A stretch of DNA of 20,000 nucleotides, taken from the IMG/VR virus record IMGVR_UViG_3300031420_000005; one strand, 5' to 3'. How positions within the stretch are numbered: position 1 is the first letter of the stretch; each line of letters begins with the position of its first letter. The DNA comes from an uncultured virus (IMG/VR IMGVR_UViG_3300031420_000005) (Duplodnaviria; Heunggongvirae; Uroviricota; Caudoviricetes). Below the pieces are notes generated by a model that was not told where the DNA came from, ran no database searches, and worked only from the letters and a program-made list of their open reading frames with translations. Shown piece by piece: positions 9,640 to 16,104 of the stretch. Made by a program: the position numbers and the translations under genes.

Positions 9640-11127
9640 TCAGCCTCCAGCGTGGATACCCCTGAAGAGCTGCTCTCCGTTCCAGCGATGCTCGTCCCGG
9701 GACTTCCAGCAGAGCTCCATGTCCTCGTTGGGATGAGCGGGGTTGAGATCCCTCCAGAACCAGTCGTCCCGGGCAGTGAAGCTGTTGCGGAGATCCTCGG
9801 GGAAGCTCTCAAAGCGCTCGGTGACTTCGGGTTCGACCTCCTCGATCCAGAGTGCGAGGGCCTTCAGGCCCAGGTCCCCGTCCGTGGTTCCCTCGATGAG
9901 CCAATTCTCTCCATCCTCGCCGAGGTCCCAGACCACGACCTCATCCAGGGTCTCGCGCTCCGGGAGGGTCACACCATCGGTCCAGCCCTTGAGCACGGCT
10001 GCAAGCTTCGGCTCCGTGGGCTCAGGAGCTCCAGTGCTGCTCCACCAGATGCGCCTGAAGATGCGCTCCAGCCGGTAGGCTTCCTGGGCAGCCTCAGCCA
10101 CGAGCTCGGGGGTGACCAGGTGATCGTAGGTCACGGTCTGCCAGTAGGTCGGGTAGAGCTCGAAGAGCTCGGAGAGCTGAAGCTGACCGGCCCTGATGGA
10201 GTTGGCCCAAATTCGGAGGATGGGATTACCCCAAGTGGGGTGCTCGACGAAGCGCATCCGAGAGAAACTCACGCCGATCTCATCCCTCTGGCCACTGGGA
10301 CCTCTCCGGTGCTTTGCGAGGTTCAGGGAGAGGATGTCCTCATCTGACCTCTCGGTGGAGCGCCGGTGGAGGAGAAGCACCTGGTCGGCGTCCTGCTCAA
10401 GGGCACCGGTCCACCGGATGTCGCTGAGCTTCGGCGGATACTCTTCGCCGATGAATCGATTGAGCTGAACAGTCACCAGAACGGCCACACCGAGCTCCAG
10501 GGCCAGGAGCTTGAGATCCCGGGAAACGGCGGCGAACTTCTCCTGTCTAGACGCACCTGTGGCTTCGAGGGATGGCATGATGAGCTCGAAGTAGTCCACG
10601 ACGATGAGATCGAGGCCTCTCTCGCTACCGATGAGCTCCAGGGCACGGGCTCGGATGTGCGCTACGGTCTGGCGAGGATCGTCGTCCAGGGTGAGCGCGA
10701 GCTGGCTCAACGCCCAGCGCGCATCTCGAATGAGCCGGCCTGTGTAGGGATTGGTCTCTCTGGCTTCTTGCTTGACCTCGGGAATCGTCAGGGAGGTCTT
10801 CGAGGCGATCATCCGCGCAAGGAGCTCATCCGCACTCATTTCAAGGCTGGAGAAGAGCACGGACTTGCCAGCCTGGAGGGCGCCGAGGGTGCTCTGGATA
10901 GCGAAGGCTGACTTGCCGTCTCCGGGGCGAGCGGCGATCAGGGACAGGCCACTGGGCGTCCACCCTCCGGTCCACTCGTCGAGCATGGAGAACCCGGTGG
11001 GGACACCGATGGGCTTTCGAACGAAGGCGGATCCCTCTGAGACCTCTCGGAGTGCGCGAGTGTAGCTTCCAGCTCCGGCTTCCTTGCGGCGCCGGGCTTC
11101 CAGCTTCTGTCGTCTGTTCTTGGTCAT
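9640..11127 (-). CDS. DnaB-like (SF4) helicase ATPase domain lacking the DnaB N-terminal domain, with a basic N-terminal peptide and an unknown ~190-aa C-terminal domain
   Basis: GVPTGFxxLD, AARPGDGKS, SLEMS, IVVDY, QLNR, PKLSDIRWTGALEQDAD, LAKHRRGP; start taken as ATG 11127 (MTKNRR). Confidence 0.88.
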   Translation of the reverse strand: MTKNRRQKLEARRRKEAGAGSYTRALREVSEGSAFVRKPIGVPTGFSMLDEWTGGWTPSGLSLIAARPGDGKSAFAIQSTLGALQAGKSVLFSSLEMSADELLARMIASKTSLTIPEVKQEARETNPYTGRLIRDARWALSQLALTLDDDPRQTVAHIRARALELIGSERGLDLIVVDYFELIMPSLEATGASRQEKFAAVSRDLKLLALELGVAVLVTVQLNRFIGEEYPPKLSDIRWTGALEQDADQVLLLHRRSTERSDEDILSLNLAKHRRGPSGQRDEIGVSFSRMRFVEHPTWGNPILRIWANSIRAGQLQLSELFELYPTYWQTVTYDHLVTPELVAEAAQEAYRLERIFRRIWWSSTGAPEPTEPKLAAVLKGWTDGVTLPERETLDEVVVWDLGEDGENWLIEGTTDGDLGLKALALWIEEVEPEVTERFESFPEDLRNSFTARDDWFWRDLNPAHPNEDMELCWKSRDEHRWNGEQLFRGIHAGG

Positions 11128-11275
11128 GGGACTACTCAACTCTCTACAGCTCTACCCACGCCTGGCTGCTTGAAGGAGCAGATACCAGAGACCCATAGGA
11201 TTCAGGGAACCTTGTTCTTGGGGGCTCACCGCGTGGGAGTGAAGCTGCGAAGACAGGCCGCTATGGGCAGCCAGG
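11128..11275 (-). ncRNA. Candidate structured cis-regulatory leader RNA (copy A)
   Basis: Homologous to 13484-13627 with compensatory changes in three helices. Confidence 0.7.
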
Positions 11276-11309
11276 TCCCATGCTAACACACTGGCTGCAG
11301 TCTGTGCAC
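11267..11309 (-). promoter_or_regulatory. Promoter GTGCAC-N18-TAGCAT with the -10 in the loop of an 8-bp inverted repeat
   Basis: GCAGCCAG 11267-11274 / CTGGCTGC 11291-11298; -10 at 11280-11285. Confidence 0.5.
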
Positions 11310-11319
11310 TCCTCGAAGC

Positions 11320-11673
11320 TCAGAGAGTAGGCAGATTCAGCTCTCCCTGGCCGACAACCTCGTCCATGACCTCGCCGAAGCTCGCGCCACCGTTGTAGTA
11401 GCTCACGAGGAAGTCGAAGCTCCCGTCGAGATTGCGCTTCGAGTGGACGAAGCCGTTGGGATCGAGTCGCTCTCGCTGGATCTCGTAGAGAGTCTCGCTG
11501 CTCCGGTCGTAGTAGTAGGAGCCGTAGAGATCCTCCTGGAGGGCTTCCAGCCAGCTGGACTCGTAGTCCTCGAGCTCGCTGCGGCCGATGCGCTTCTGAA
11601 TCCACTGGTCCAGGGTCTGCTCTCCGAGCTCCACCGGGATGAGCTTTCCTCGATAGGTGTCCACATCGCTCAT
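11320..11673 (-). CDS. Hypothetical protein, paralog of 7112-7444
   Basis: SD GGAAGGAG; alignable over nearly its full length to 7112-7444. Confidence 0.85.
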   Translation of the reverse strand: MSDVDTYRGKLIPVELGEQTLDQWIQKRIGRSELEDYESSWLEALQEDLYGSYYYDRSSETLYEIQRERLDPNGFVHSKRNLDGSFDFLVSYYNGGASFGEVMDEVVGQGELNLPTL

Positions 11674-11838
11674 GGGAGCGCTCCTTCCGTAGCTGCCAGC
11701 CTAAGGTCCGAACCATCCTACCATGCATCATCCAACGGAATCGACCTAGAGCTCGCTCAGGACGCAGCCTACGGCCAGTCCGAGGGCACAGGAGATCGTC
11801 GAGCATTAGAGACAGCACCAAGAGCTAGAGGGAGCACG

Positions 11839-12717
11839 ATGAGCACCATGAGATTCCATGTGAACGATGAGACCGGCGAAGTCGGTGTCTGCAAGGCCCG
11901 GACCGGCGAGGAAGCCACAGGTCGAGGCTGCCCCTTCGGCGGGGATGACAAGCACTACGCCACGGGCGCCGAGGCTCGAGCCGCCTACGAGAAGTCCATG
12001 GAGGAGGAGCTCACTCCCGTAGCCCTGGTGAAGCAGAAGGTCAAGGCCGCCTTCGGGATCAAGTCGACCCCCAGGGAGAAGCCCGAGTTCCACGCTGAGG
12101 ACGGCTTCACTAAGATGGTGCTCGCCGTGGAGGCCGCCCACGACGCCACCTCCACCGACCGGGAGTTGGAGCAGGCTGAGTACAACTTCTTCCTCTCCCA
12201 GTCCCTGGAGGGCGAGGACACCGCTCTGCCCGCAAGCTACCGGGAATTCTACGATGAGCCTGAGCTTCAGAACGAGGAGCTCTCCCTGAAGGACTGGAAG
12301 GCTGAGAACTCCACCCAGCAGTTCGTGGTCCAGAGGCTCCTAGAGTCGGCCCACGCCCACCACTACACGGCCATGGAGAACGCTGGGCTGCGGTCGAGCC
12401 GGTTCTTCGAGGCTCTCCAGAAGGAAAACGGCCAGGAGCTCACCGGAAATCCCGTGAGCGAGGCCGGTGAGCAGGGCAAGATCGAGCGCTACGACCAGGG
12501 TGCCATCTACAGCTACACGCAGGCTGCAAGGGAGGCCATGGGCCGATCCTTCCCCGAGACCTCCAGCCGGAAGGAGCAGCTCGCCGCACTCCGGGAGTTC
12601 GTCGAGGAGCGCACAGCCTTCCTTGAGGTGACCTACGACCCCGAGAGCTCCGACTTCGAGGAGGGCAAGGTGGGCTCTCAGGTTGAGTGGCTCAACGAGC
12701 CCTTCGACTGGGAGTGA
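11839..12717 (+). CDS. Hypothetical protein with an N-terminal His/Cys putative Zn-binding module and an acidic helical body
   Basis: SD GAGGGAG before ATG 11839; FHVNDETGEVGVC…CPFGGDDKHY; the longer ORF-track start overlaps the divergent gene. Confidence 0.75.
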   Translation: MSTMRFHVNDETGEVGVCKARTGEEATGRGCPFGGDDKHYATGAEARAAYEKSMEEELTPVALVKQKVKAAFGIKSTPREKPEFHAEDGFTKMVLAVEAAHDATSTDRELEQAEYNFFLSQSLEGEDTALPASYREFYDEPELQNEELSLKDWKAENSTQQFVVQRLLESAHAHHYTAMENAGLRSSRFFEALQKENGQELTGNPVSEAGEQGKIERYDQGAIYSYTQAAREAMGRSFPETSSRKEQLAALREFVEERTAFLEVTYDPESSDFEEGKVGSQVEWLNEPFDWE

Positions 12718-12941
12718 TCCTCGGCCTGCACTGAGGCTCTCTAGGAACCGCTCCGGCAGATTCGACGCCGGGGCGGTTCTTGCTGCGGCTGCCCTCCTAA
12801 GCCCCGAACTCTTCGGTCGCACATCATCGAACCGAAGTGCGAGAGAAGTCGCGTAGGCGGCAGCCTGTGGCCGGAGAGAGGCAACTCTAGGCCTATCTGG
12901 AATCGATACCATGGAAAGGACACTCGATAAGGAGAATCCCG

Positions 12942-13427
12942 ATGCCCCTCGTAGAAGAGAGTAGCTTCAAGACCCTGGCCAAGGCCCTGGAACCCATGGA
13001 GCTCGCTGGCCAGCTCCGCTACCTGCCGGCCTTCGAGTGCTGTGGGAGCTGTGCTGGAGCTCGACTCAACGGCTTCATGGACACTCCGGCAGAGGACTGG
13101 GGCGACTACGAGCTCTATGTGACCTTCGATGAGCAGGCCGTGGAGAACAACATCACACTGCAGCTCTGGCTCACCGCCTGGGCCTTTGGACTACCGTTCT
13201 CCGAGGAGGATGAAGCTCGCATCAACCGCATCGTCGCCGACGAGCTCATCGCCGGAGGCTTCAGGGAGATTCCAGCGCCCTCCGAGGAGCATCTGAGCGC
13301 AAAATCTGATCCGAACCTCGAGCTCAACACCTTCTTCATCTACGGAGGAGCCCTGGTGGTTCGCGGCCTCTTCGAGGGCAAGCCCAAGCCCACCAAGGCA
13401 GTGCGGAAGCTCGGCCTCCGCTACTGA
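12942..13427 (+). CDS. Hypothetical protein with a CCxxC motif (possibly DUF6891-like)
   Basis: SD AAGGAG; FECCGSCA…YVTFDEQ; family assignment is tentative. Confidence 0.7.
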   Translation: MPLVEESSFKTLAKALEPMELAGQLRYLPAFECCGSCAGARLNGFMDTPAEDWGDYELYVTFDEQAVENNITLQLWLTAWAFGLPFSEEDEARINRIVADELIAGGFREIPAPSEEHLSAKSDPNLELNTFFIYGGALVVRGLFEGKPKPTKAVRKLGLRY

Positions 13428-13457
13428 GGTCACTACTCAAGCATTCCTCTAGGAGCT

Positions 13458-13491
13458 TCGGCCAGGGCTTTGATAGTGTGGTTCTGGCCGA
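13458..13491 (+). promoter_or_regulatory. Putative -10 TAGTGT in the loop of an inverted repeat
   Basis: TCGGCCAG 13458-13465 / CTGGCCGA 13484-13491; -10 at 13474-13479; same position relative to the leader as in copy A. Confidence 0.5.
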
Positions 13492-13627
13492 CTACAGCGG
13501 CCCGTCTTTGGGTAGTGTCTCCACGCGACCGCCTCTAGAGCAAGGTTTCCGAATCCTGTAGGTTACTGACAGCACGCATTCCTGTGCAGTCGGGCGTGGA
13601 GCGACTGTGAACAGAGAGCAAACTGCC
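13484..13627 (+). ncRNA. Candidate structured cis-regulatory leader RNA (copy B)
   Basis: Homologous to 11128-11275 (-) with covarying stems. Confidence 0.7.
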
Positions 13628-14659
13628 ATGACCAGTAACCGCAAGAACAAGCGCATCATCCGGGACCACATGGAGAAGACCGGACTCAACTTCCTCGAGG
13701 CGAAGCTTCAGCTCGAGGCCTCGGGCGTGATCTCGAAGCCCGGAGAGCCGAAGGCCGTCGACCCCAACGGCCTCAACTGGCCGCTCCGCACGGGCAGGCC
13801 GAAGGTCCCGGCGGCACCGCTCGGCAGGGCCATCACCGTGACCTCCTCCAAGGGCGGTGGAGGCAAGACAAGCACAGCCCTAGCCCTGGGAGCCTACCTC
13901 GCCCTGTCCTCCAGGAGCGGCCCTTACAGGCCACTGAAGGTGCTCGTCCTCGACCTCGATGTGCGAGACGGACAGATCGGATTCTTCACCGGATTCTGGA
14001 AGCCCACGGTGATGCGGCTCCTTCGCTACGGGATCAGCGAGAGCGAGATCAAGGCCACCGTGATCCATGACGATGGACTCGATGTGGATGTGCTCCTCGC
14101 TCCCCGGCGACCGCGCTCGGCGGATGACCTCTCCCCGGAGTTCTATGCTGAGCTCATCGCGAAGCTCAGGGGAATCTACGACTACATCGTCCTCGACACT
14201 TCGGTGAGCTACTCAGATCCGATTCGCTCGCAGGTCGGTTACGGCTACGGCACCACCGACAGGATCCTGGTGCTCGCCGATGCCACCAACACCTCGCTCA
14301 TGGGACTGTCCCGCTGGATTCAGTCAGTTACCGCGCCACTTGACCAGGGTGGGCTGGGAGTAGCCAAGAGCCGGATCAGCGTCGTTCTCAACAGGGTGCT
14401 CCCCGGCACCGATCCGGAGAGCAATCAGAAGGTCATCAACAGCGCTCTGGAGATTCCCATCGTCGGCTCAATTCCCCTCAGGAGTGAGCTCTTCCACAGC
14501 GCCTCCGACGCGGGAGCTCTAGAGCGGGTTCTCGATGATCCGGAGATTCGAGCAGCCCTCAGGCGAGTGCTCCTCTCGGTGGTAGACCACGAGCTCGGAG
14601 AGCTCCCTGGGACAGAGGCTGAGCCGGAGCGACCTGAGGAGGACGGCCGCAGGGACTGA
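13628..14659 (+). CDS. ParA/MinD/CpaE-family ATPase with a basic N-terminal peptide
   Basis: Deviant Walker A SSKGGGGKTS, LDLDVRDGQ, YDYIVLDT, VVLNRV; start taken as ATG 13628 (MTSNRK). Confidence 0.88.
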   Translation: MTSNRKNKRIIRDHMEKTGLNFLEAKLQLEASGVISKPGEPKAVDPNGLNWPLRTGRPKVPAAPLGRAITVTSSKGGGGKTSTALALGAYLALSSRSGPYRPLKVLVLDLDVRDGQIGFFTGFWKPTVMRLLRYGISESEIKATVIHDDGLDVDVLLAPRRPRSADDLSPEFYAELIAKLRGIYDYIVLDTSVSYSDPIRSQVGYGYGTTDRILVLADATNTSLMGLSRWIQSVTAPLDQGGLGVAKSRISVVLNRVLPGTDPESNQKVINSALEIPIVGSIPLRSELFHSASDAGALERVLDDPEIRAALRRVLLSVVDHELGELPGTEAEPERPEEDGRRD

Positions 14660-14673
14660 CTTCAGCTGACAGC

Positions 14674-14710
14674 AGGGGCGCCCGCGGCTCTAGGAGCTGT
14701 GGGCGCCCCT
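14674..14710 (+). terminator. Strong stem-loop after the ParA-like gene
   Basis: AGGGGCGCCCGCGGCTC-TAG-GAGCTGTGGGCGCCCCT. Confidence 0.6.
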
Positions 14711-14811
14711 CGCCCTTGGGCCAAGGAACTCCATTCGGCTCGATCCGCGTGGCTCCGGCGTTTTTCGATAGGATAGGCGGAAGGAACACACCACTGAACT
14801 AGGGAAAGCAC

Positions 14812-16104
14812 ATGGCAATCAAGGTAGAGCTCAACGGCGGGCTAGACATCGGCAACGGCTACATCAAGGCGCTCGTCGAGAGCAAGAGCGAGGGTGGCAA
14901 GCGGGACACCGTGGACATGCCCTCGGCTGTGGCCATCCTCACTCGGCCCAACCAGATCCCCACCAGCGACGAGGACGCCGTCGAGGTACTCACGGGAGAG
15001 GGCGCTGACTTCTTCAATCAGCTCGATGCATCCTTCGACAGCCCGCTGATCCCAGACAGCTACCGGCGGGTCTTCGGCATGCGCTCCCTGTCCGCAGACG
15101 GTGCCTTCGAGGAGTTCGACACCGTGGGCCGGGCCTCCAAGGCCAAGCAGCCCCTCTCCAAGGCTCTGGTGCTCGGGATCTTCGCGGCCAAGGCCCTGAA
15201 GGACTATGTGGCCCGGGAGGGTGAGCTCCCCGACGAGGAGATCCTCGTGGACGCGAGCGTGGCCCTGGCGCTGCCGATCTCCGAGTTCATGCGCCACCGG
15301 GAGAGCTACGCTGCCGAGTTCATCAACGGCGGCAAGGCTCACATCGCCGTGGTGAAGAACTTCGAGACCAGTGTGGTCGTGAAGATCAGCTTCTCCAAGG
15401 TCGAGGTCCTCGCAGAGGGCGCTTCGGCTCACTACGCCATCGCCGAGCGTGGTGCCTCGATCATGGACAAGGTGCTCTCGGATCTCCTGGAGAACGCTCC
15501 CAGCCCCGAGCGCCGGGAGGAGCTCGCTGAGATCACTCCCGAGGATGTGCTCGCTGCCACCAACACCATCGGCATCGATGTGGGCGAGGGCACGGTGAAC
15601 TTCCCGGTTTTCACCAACGGCAAGTTCAACGCCGACGCCTCCCGGACCCTGGACAAGGGCTGGGGCTCAGTGCTCCTCTCGGCCATCACGGCCATGGAGG
15701 ACCAGGGCATCGAGGCTGGCTTCAGCTCCCGGAAGGACATCGCTGAGTTCCTCCAGAGGAAGCCCTCTGCGCTCAAGAAGACCTTCTACAACCGGGTCCA
15801 GCAGTTCGTGGATCAGGAGGCCGTGTTCTTCGCCGAGGAGGTCGCCGAGAAGCTCGGTACCATCCTCCGCAATGTGGGCGCCATGACCGAGGTCGGCTTC
15901 GTCTACGGCGGTGGAGCCGGTGCCATGAAGGATGTGCTCTACCCCCGGCTCCAGGAGAAGATCAGCGAGATGAACTCCATCAGCGCCTTCCCACTCCTCT
16001 ACCTCGACGGATCCTACTCCCGCCACCTCAACCGGGCTGGTCTCTTCCTCGCCTCCCAGGACAAGACCAAGGCTGAGGCCAAGAAGCCCAAGAAGAAGGA
16101 CTAG
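14812..16104 (+). CDS. ParM/StbA-family actin-like ATPase
   Basis: Phosphate-1 GLDIGNGYIK, connect-1 VLAEG, phosphate-2 GIDVGEGTVN, adenosine VYGGGA. Confidence 0.88.
   Translation: MAIKVELNGGLDIGNGYIKALVESKSEGGKRDTVDMPSAVAILTRPNQIPTSDEDAVEVLTGEGADFFNQLDASFDSPLIPDSYRRVFGMRSLSADGAFEEFDTVGRASKAKQPLSKALVLGIFAAKALKDYVAREGELPDEEILVDASVALALPISEFMRHRESYAAEFINGGKAHIAVVKNFETSVVVKISFSKVEVLAEGASAHYAIAERGASIMDKVLSDLLENAPSPERREELAEITPEDVLAATNTIGIDVGEGTVNFPVFTNGKFNADASRTLDKGWGSVLLSAITAMEDQGIEAGFSSRKDIAEFLQRKPSALKKTFYNRVQQFVDQEAVFFAEEVAEKLGTILRNVGAMTEVGFVYGGGAGAMKDVLYPRLQEKISEMNSISAFPLLYLDGSYSRHLNRAGLFLASQDKTKAEAKKPKKKD

Follow-up and report, generated by a model that had tools for sequence, protein, structure and literature searches.

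A leader RNA and an N-terminal peptide found together in front of unrelated genes suggest an undescribed portable control module in actinobacteria

The DNA stretch analysed here, hereafter the window, comprises 20,000 nucleotides from an uncultured virus (IMG/VR record IMGVR_UViG_3300031420_000005) and contains a gene for a DnaB-like helicase (P0001, 9640-11127, minus strand, 495 amino acids) and one for a ParA-like ATPase (P0002, 13628-14659, plus strand, 343 amino acids). Both genes are preceded by a structured leader and begin with a short basic peptide. Across actinobacteria, dozens of unrelated genes turned out to have the leader and the peptide together at their start, suggesting a portable control module that is undescribed; the relatedness of both parts in the two window genes goes far beyond chance. 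The best explanation is that each window gene carries one copy of a widespread undescribed cassette. Judging from sequence, we give a probability of about 0.45 to the reading that this portable module is self-regulating, such that the peptide would bind its own leader and control translation.

Two unrelated genes share a leader and an N-terminal peptide

An initial annotation of the window had quoted related basic N-termini for the two genes, and translation from 11127 (minus strand) and from 13628 (plus strand) yielded exactly these peptides. Peptide A comprises the first ~36 codons of the DnaB-like gene (11020-11127, minus strand) and peptide B the first 33 codons of the ParA-like gene (13628-13726, plus strand). 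The proteins behind them are indeed unrelated, as had been claimed. By Pfam and orthologue alignment, cargo A (9640-11019, minus strand) is a DnaB_C-type helicase core (PF03796, residues 41-280 of P0001, E 7e-54) with a C-terminal extension of ~200 residues, and cargo B (13727-14659, plus strand) is a ParA/MinD-type P-loop ATPase which matches the AAA_31, CbiA and ParA families, the first two above cut-off. The lysine-glycine block of the deviant Walker A motif typical of ParA/MinD proteins is invariant across the orthologue alignment of P0002. P0001 lacks the DnaB N-terminal domain (PF00772) that ordinary helicase relatives carry, and the peptide stands in its place. A six-frame hmmsearch of the window detected two copies of the peptide only (81 and 66 bits; the next best match scored 3.6 bits), and a model of the leader (R1) likewise detected two copies; no further copy was detected in the window, in agreement with the annotation.

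The peptides are better conserved across orthologues than the cargo. The first ~33 residues are almost unchanged in 13/13 short-form ParA orthologues, which are 45-79% identical overall, and three aligned long-form ParA relatives have a different N-terminal domain instead. Similarly, the first ~36 residues are kept in 6/6 helicase orthologues (54-77% identical). In one helicase orthologue (L005:1217-1219, minus strand), ATT is found where the others show ATG at the start of the peptide, reflecting either an ATT start or a sequencing difference.

Between the two peptide types, however, the likeness is weak. BLASTP of P0001 against P0002 gave no N-terminal likeness, hhalign assigned the pair a probability of 45%, and only 6 columns are invariant across both types. 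The BLASTP result and the few invariant columns are compatible with a chance likeness of two basic N-termini, an explanation which we nevertheless regard as almost negligible. In a profile-profile comparison of the first 40 residues (10 ParA-type versus 5 helicase-type rows), columns 1-25 aligned in register from residue 1 with P 2.2e-4; one joint profile retrieved 105 proteins, almost all at residue 1 (see below); and the two genes have a homologous leader in common.

The regions upstream of the two start codons align with each other over ~200 nucleotides. In an alignment of 10 ParA-type and 5 helicase-type metagenome leaders (A4), this likeness runs from a likely extended -10 element through into the first codons. 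Leader A occupies 11147-11275 on the minus strand (R1, 97.3 bits), between the putative -10 element (11280-11288) and a spacer with a purine-rich ribosome-binding region (11128-11146). Leader B occupies 13483-13608 on the plus strand (R1, 146.3 bits), between its putative -10 element (13471-13479) and the corresponding purine-rich spacer before the ParA start codon (13609-13627). The -10 elements lie at the same spacing before both leaders, and nine leaders from sequenced genomes show -10-like hexamers 6-8 nucleotides before their first helix, P1. The transcript of leader A would probably begin a few bases past the -10 element, just before P1. A scan for consensus sigma-70 promoters found none, and the promoters were assigned by eye.

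The leader and the peptide co-occur across genomes

The initial annotation had further claimed that promoter, RNA and peptide form a portable module. We followed this up with a peptide profile, a catalogue of cargo domains and RNA models applied to the upstream DNA. The profile, built from 15 N-termini and searched against 1.84 billion representative proteins, retrieved 105 proteins of 34-809 residues at E <= 0.001. In 92 of these the match is N-terminal, and most of the other 13 begin at an internal methionine, which suggests start codons annotated too far upstream; two of the 105 are repetitive proteins and probably false. Among 60 of the 105 proteins, Pfam identified six with DnaB_C and six with Clp_N (one of each below cut-off), one ParA-type protein, one TIR, one FtsK/SpoIIIE and one Methyltransf_19; two proteins resembled STAND-type nucleoside triphosphatases (NTPases) and one resembled AAA NTPases, weakly and below cut-off, and many had no known domain. 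The TIR, STAND, FtsK and methyltransferase cargo is known from the proteins alone.

A back-translated pattern of the invariant positions located at least 120 peptide loci in sequenced genomes, dominated by Streptomyces. Nearly all the matches listed are from Actinomycetota; a few others come from Ensifer/Agrobacterium, Sphingopyxis, Acetobacteraceae and myxobacterial records. The cargo among the genomic loci listed includes CN-hydrolase, PP2C, glyoxalase, DUF2087, DUF4287 with AHSA1, BtrH_N with DUF4872 and the alpha subunit of DNA polymerase III; standalone peptide proteins of 41-88 residues also exist.

We searched the DNA upstream of these genes for the leader. Model R1 gave weak matches exactly upstream of four peptide genes and, with filters off on nine chosen loci, one more leader with the same conserved core; in 62 loci of peptide-less ParA relatives, used as a negative control, R1 gave 0 matches. 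A second model, R2, was built from nine genomic leaders only, with no metagenome sequence. In 18 of the 120 matches listed, it placed a leader immediately upstream and in the same orientation (E <= 0.011); at E <= 1 there were 3 more in place, and 3 matches off place. R2 also found the window's helicase leader again at its exact place (11147-11274; 19.7 bits, E 0.17), and scored the leaders of its orthologues at 23-29 bits. Most of the remaining peptide families have a second leader type (type II), from which a third model, R3, was built; at E <= 0.1 it matched 38 of the 120 listed loci in place and 1 off place. Taken together, R2 and R3 support a leader in 54 of the 120 matches listed, representing 30 of 37 peptide clusters. 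A leader signature consisting of a conserved box and hairpin P3 was present in 47/117 upstream regions, compared with 3/117 reverse complements and 1/117 coding controls, always 72-122 nucleotides before the start codon. In relatives of the window element with enough flanking DNA, both leaders and both peptide genes were found in 5/5 loci.

Leader and peptide together precede genes for CN-hydrolase (a nitrilase-type hydrolase), PP2C, glyoxalase, Clp_N, DUF2087, SRPBCC, BtrH_N, DNA polymerase III alpha, DnaB_C and ParA in actinobacteria and the window. Near-identical peptide subtypes with the same leader type occur on CN-hydrolase, PP2C and glyoxalase. Since these cargo domains are unrelated, the peptide is the only thing that the genes behind the leader have in common. 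Type II leaders with the peptide are also present in Ensifer, Agrobacterium, Sphingopyxis, Acetobacteraceae and myxobacterial records (L075, L089, L118, L192, L150, L079, L082 and L130), mostly on CN-hydrolase; these loci suggest that the whole unit has been transferred outside Actinomycetota.

The association was also seen when the search started from the RNA. R2 applied to 5 whole genomes gave 7 matches, namely 5 seeds and 2 new leaders, and both new leaders precede peptide variants beyond the reach of the peptide pattern. A 14-base core pattern gave 8 matches in 151 Streptomycetaceae genomes, compared with 1 for the reversed control. Five of the 8 have a full leader context and a clear peptide gene, 1 has a degenerate and probably decayed peptide gene, and 2 have neither leader context nor peptide. 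Of 7 new leaders from the RNA-first searches, 6 precede a clear peptide gene and 1 a degenerate one. R2 in 61 genomes found only the seed and R3 in 5 genomes only the 5 known loci, results of little weight, as the best 52 and the best 150, respectively, of thousands of candidates per genome were scored. Of the annotation's portable module, the joint travel of leader RNA and peptide onto different cargo is therefore borne out; the promoter, assigned by eye, is a likely part of it.

One of the R2 leaders belongs to a third cassette, present in two relatives of the window element (L005:8229-8362 and L010:11061-11201, both plus strand) in front of a P-loop NTPase and not found in the 20-kb window. 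In its peptide, a variant of the others, the second residue is changed and a short stretch is inserted. The three cassettes of each of these elements differ in RNA core and in peptide, a divergence which, on sequence, would fit cognate pairs.

The leader is structured at the RNA level

Each leader can be divided into the same parts. In leader A (minus strand), P1 (11256-11272) is followed by a pyrimidine-rich linker, a long-range helix P2 (11231-11237 with 11155-11161), a conserved box with hairpin P3 (11199-11214) and a variable hairpin P4 (11162-11188). In leader B (plus strand), the corresponding parts are P1 (13486-13502), the linker (13503-13519), P2 (13520-13526 with 13594-13600), the box with P3 (13541-13555) and P4 (13566-13593). 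The first ~100 nucleotides of the ParA-type leader are near-invariant in 10 loci whose ParA proteins are 48-100% identical; between elements with ParA proteins at 48-57% identity, the leader is ~95% identical over 100 nucleotides, making it the best conserved part of the locus.

In 15 distinct leaders of the element family, 93.6% of the pair cells hold standard pairs, compared with 31-47% when the partners are slid by 1-3 columns, and 9/27 pairs are changed on both sides; these counts and the helix shuffles rest on related sequences and on an alignment (A6) fitted to the model. P2, which spans ~85 nucleotides, is 100% paired in these 15 leaders, with 3 pairs changed on both sides. P3 as drawn in R1 has 3 pairs that never vary, so that its pair counts are uninformative, and the genomic leaders show the hairpin shifted; across families P3 co-varies and keeps a G-U pair as its invariant second pair. 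A G-U pair is also found in P1 of leader A. Since G-U pairs are kept in P1 and P3 and would be mismatches in DNA, the structure argues for action at the RNA level rather than as a DNA palindrome.

We considered the converse possibility, that the upstream element works as DNA and that the peptide is a small DNA-binding domain which represses its own promoter through an inverted repeat at the transcription start. Type Ia ParA proteins autoregulate the par promoter through an N-terminal DNA-binding domain in this manner, and P1 forms an inverted repeat immediately downstream of the likely -10 element. The tolerated G-U pairs and the co-variation of the long-range helix P2 are not expected of such an operator, however, and the peptide matches no helix-turn-helix family. 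We therefore hold a DNA operator to be quite improbable.

Twenty type II leaders yield a fold of 33 consensus pairs, with compensatory changes in 18, and in 20/20 the pyrimidine linker is paired to a purine tract inside the leader. By eye, the ribosome-binding region resembles this purine tract, so that the linker could pair there instead.

Rfam 15 gave no match over the window leaders, neither at the gathering score nor at E <= 10, and none at E <= 1 over 9 genomic type I loci; 12 further loci gave two weak matches, both located elsewhere. The exact P1-plus-linker pattern of the window's leader type was absent from the genome contigs and viral contigs searched, and this subtype has so far been seen solely in metagenome contigs.

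A separate observation concerns the start codon. Among 54 non-redundant loci, 23 leaders contain a 5-base box, located 20-130 nucleotides before the start codon, that is complementary to this codon and to the opening bases of codon 2; shuffled words gave 12.3 +/- 2.9, and 0/300 shuffles reached the observed number. A 6-base word from the start codon showed no excess in the leaders. The box could pair with the start codon, which might explain the constant threonine as second codon.

The peptide is predicted to form a two-helix hairpin

AlphaFold, run with the ParA alignment, predicted a helix at residues 3-18, a turn and a second helix at 22-32 (predicted local distance difference test, pLDDT, 70-88), followed by a disordered linker (residues 40-60) before the ATPase. 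A 42-residue model of the peptide alone (58-row alignment) gave the same hairpin with pLDDT 82, with a conserved turn glycine and hydrophobic contacts. Such basic, predicted helices on a disordered tether look as an RNA-binding arm would.

The peptide corresponds to no family that we searched. Pfam at E <= 10 returned a single chance-level row for four 40-residue N-termini, and none of the best Pfam matches listed for peptide-bearing proteins covers the N-terminal peptide. NCBIfam at E <= 1 gave no family over the peptide, the PDB profile search gave 0 matches, an atlas search gave unnamed clusters only, and Foldseek with the peptide model gave nothing at E <= 1. Its composition had suggested a relative of ribosomal protein L34. 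This idea was rejected, as PF00468 matched only the true L34 gene in 5 peptide-carrying genomes and a comparison of the 105 N-termini with 5 L34 sequences by hhalign returned P 0.31.

The conservation of ~30 residues from residue 1, with 92/105 profile matches N-terminal and most others starting at an internal methionine, could also be that of a nascent-chain arrest or pausing peptide. The conserved residues would then be contacts with the ribosomal tunnel rather than a folded domain, and the leader would read the pause; the excess of start-codon-complementary boxes (23/54 leaders) is in line with this. The predicted hairpin, with its turn glycine and hydrophobic contacts, points instead to a folded unit, and we know of no arrest peptides kept as the N-termini of dozens of mature enzymes. 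Consequently, we consider arrest to be very improbable.

A self-regulating module and its main alternative

How might RNA and peptide work together? The cassette consists of a likely promoter of its own, a structured 5' leader of ~130-150 nucleotides with its first bases at, or close to, the putative transcription start, and ~30-35 initial codons; these specify a basic hairpin of two predicted helices, which a flexible linker connects to the cargo. Once translated, or while the chain is still emerging, this hairpin would bind the folded core of its own leader (P2, conserved box and P3), and binding would move the pyrimidine-rich linker from the internal purine-rich decoy onto the ribosome-binding site. 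Accumulation of the protein would thereby lower output, as a translational feedback. We infer the binding, the decoy switch and the direction of regulation. Any gene acquiring the cassette would inherit dosage control; in the window element, helicase and partition ATPase would each be dosed by their own diverged, possibly orthogonal, pair, which would be fitting for proteins that a mobile element uses in replication and partition. In its full form, which we propose as possible though short of probable, this reading describes an undescribed portable ribonucleoprotein cassette of Actinomycetota and a few proteobacteria and myxobacteria, in which leader RNA and the peptide that binds it move as a block onto unrelated 5' ends and provide translational feedback, with co-resident cassettes as orthogonal cognate pairs.

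Several observations weigh against this reading. In addition to the weak likeness between the two window peptides and the relatedness of the sequences behind the pair counts, a clear leader is missing in 7/37 clusters, one of which has weak in-place matches only and another too little upstream DNA. In one Streptomyces family of ~155 residues, 52/57 loci among the matches listed keep the peptide with a truncated leader, and because of this family the peptide must also have a role that needs no RNA in cis. Peptide-less leaders could have escaped, given that 52-150 of thousands of candidates were scored per genome. The association of leader and peptide could also arise from C-terminal domains added behind an existing gene start, keeping leader and N-terminus together. 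Finally, the weak fold neighbours of the hairpin, all at Foldseek E > 1, are the N-terminal hairpin of HU and UBA-like domains, which are dimerisation or protein-binding modules and not RNA binders.

The Streptomyces family accounts for 52 of the 66 loci without a model-supported leader among the matches listed. In these loci (L076, L081, L096 and 49 more), all that is left of the leader is its promoter-proximal end and its 3' end, which looks like an internal deletion of the RNA. Five relatives of the family have a full leader (L090, L106, L110, L189, and L167 or L190 type).

The family supports the main alternative, in which the leader responds to something else, be it temperature, a small molecule, a small RNA or an RNA-binding protein acting in trans. 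The peptide would then be an N-terminal domain in its own right, serving to bind DNA or the nucleoid, to dimerise or to contact a partner protein common to its carriers, and both would be co-inherited through domain shuffling 3' of one ancestral gene start. The persistence of the peptide without most of the leader in 52/57 loci, its standalone forms of 41-88 residues, and a linker/decoy layout typical of switches that any ligand could drive all favor this view, as do the HU-type and UBA-type neighbours. With these the hairpin shares two antiparallel helices of similar length and a tight turn (best Foldseek template modelling score 0.6 over 28 aligned residues); it differs in having no sequence relation to them, and they have no tie to leader RNAs. 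On the other hand, no shared function links the cargo genes, as it would in the regulon of a metabolite riboswitch, and RNA and peptide are conserved together in 30/37 clusters of the matches listed, from several Actinomycetota orders. Moreover, the diverged RNA cores of the three cassettes in one element are unexpected with one common ligand. On balance, we regard an independent signal as unlikely.

Relation to known systems

The self-regulating module would work most like phage lambda N and nut or like self-repressing ribosomal proteins, and it belongs to no family tested. Lambda N is an arginine-rich peptide that acts with the nut/boxB RNA, and its translation is repressed through nutL in its own leader. 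In both cases the protein begins with an arginine-rich, helical peptide and its own gene has an RNA element in the 5' leader, an arrangement that would permit feedback in cis. In contrast to the 15-nucleotide hairpin of lambda, the RNA here is a multi-helix fold of ~130-150 nucleotides; the binding is a presumed one; no terminators lie downstream; and the peptide-RNA pair occurs on dozens of unrelated cargo. The initial annotation had offered antitermination as one option. A scan of 11050-13700 on both strands gave no terminator-like site in or after either leader, and since no terminators follow the leaders, antitermination is unlikely.

The ribosomal proteins S6:S18 are described as exerting autogenous translational control by binding their own mRNA leader (PMC3854524). 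As in such systems, the structured 5' leader adjoins the ribosome-binding site, and the gene just downstream codes for a basic protein as the presumed ligand. The leaders of ribosomal proteins, however, mimic sites in ribosomal RNA and each belong to one fixed operon, whereas the unit described here is portable and tested negative for likeness to L34.

With type Ia ParA proteins, the ParA-like gene shares an extra N-terminal module of nucleic-acid-binding appearance and a conserved element at its own promoter. Their module is a helix-turn-helix domain of ~100 residues, in contrast to a 33-residue two-helix hairpin with a disordered linker; the element here behaves as RNA, with G-U pairs and a long-range helix, and the module is also found on genes that are not concerned with partition.

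The fold of ANTAR-target RNAs is a pair of hairpins; we saw no such pair in the leaders, nor did Rfam report a match. Both are structured RNA families near start sites in high-GC actinobacteria. According to the report on ANTAR targets, these conserved structured RNAs recruit ANTAR proteins and bring about translational repression (bioRxiv 10.1101/660928). As presented there, the ANTAR protein differs from the peptide in being a separate trans-acting regulator, with no tie to an N-terminal peptide of the regulated gene.

A metabolite riboswitch was also considered. For an aptamer with an expression platform that hides the ribosome-binding site or forms a terminator, the observations point both ways: the core of the leaders is conserved and their pyrimidine linker pairs internally with a purine stretch, yet the scan gave no terminator. 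The genes linked to them (listed above, from helicase and ParA to BtrH_N and DNA polymerase III alpha) form no coherent pathway or transport function and share only the peptide, which argues against this candidate. In the full-text literature, with a coverage that omits most subscription journals so that an earlier description is possible, we found no description of the peptide or the leader; PMC7159879 concerns other domains.

The element that carries the two genes

The helicase and ParA genes are divergent, with 3 small genes of unknown function between them. One small gene, just upstream of leader A and on the same strand (11320-11673, minus), matches phrog_6035, a phage family of unknown function, at E 3e-9. 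Genes nearby encode an AAA ATPase, an FtsK/SpoIIIE-like protein, an HNH-like region and, immediately behind ParA, an actin-like partition protein, which gives the neighbourhood the look of a mobile element. The same stretch is also contained in a 178-kb metagenome contig (L001); the plasmid and phage collections gave no near DNA match to the window, and the viral contigs yielded no relative of P0002.

Some features of the two genes themselves deserve mention. The ParA-type ATPase and the actin-like (ALP_N / ParM-like) protein directly behind it form a tandem of two different partition-type NTPases (13628-16104, plus strand). In P0003, an orthologue of P0002 with 389 amino acids, an insertion of ~45 residues repeats the Walker A region (alignment columns 190-240), and is either a partial internal duplication or an assembly artefact. 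The C-terminal ~200 residues of P0001 (9640-10240, minus strand) are a conserved extension without a Pfam match, which exists in two clearly different versions among the 6 helicase orthologues. P0264, a peptide-bearing protein without the helicase core, appears by eye to resemble the start of this extension.

Implications

Normally, what the downstream genes do accounts for a cis-regulatory RNA. Here, a 30-residue peptide is the sole trait that the downstream genes share, and thus RNA and peptide define each other. Even if the peptide does not bind the leader, these are two large, conserved and undescribed families, one of RNA with at least 2 subtypes and one of peptides with more than 15 cargo types, and their strict linkage would need explaining. 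If the peptide binds the leader, they would be a new RNA family and a new family of RNA-binding peptides, and the cassette would provide a natural, modular route to autoregulated expression for any protein. It would also offer a ready-made set of orthogonal parts for engineering high-GC bacteria such as Streptomyces. For the element in the window, the self-regulating module would, if true, account for the dosing of its replication helicase and its partition ATPase.

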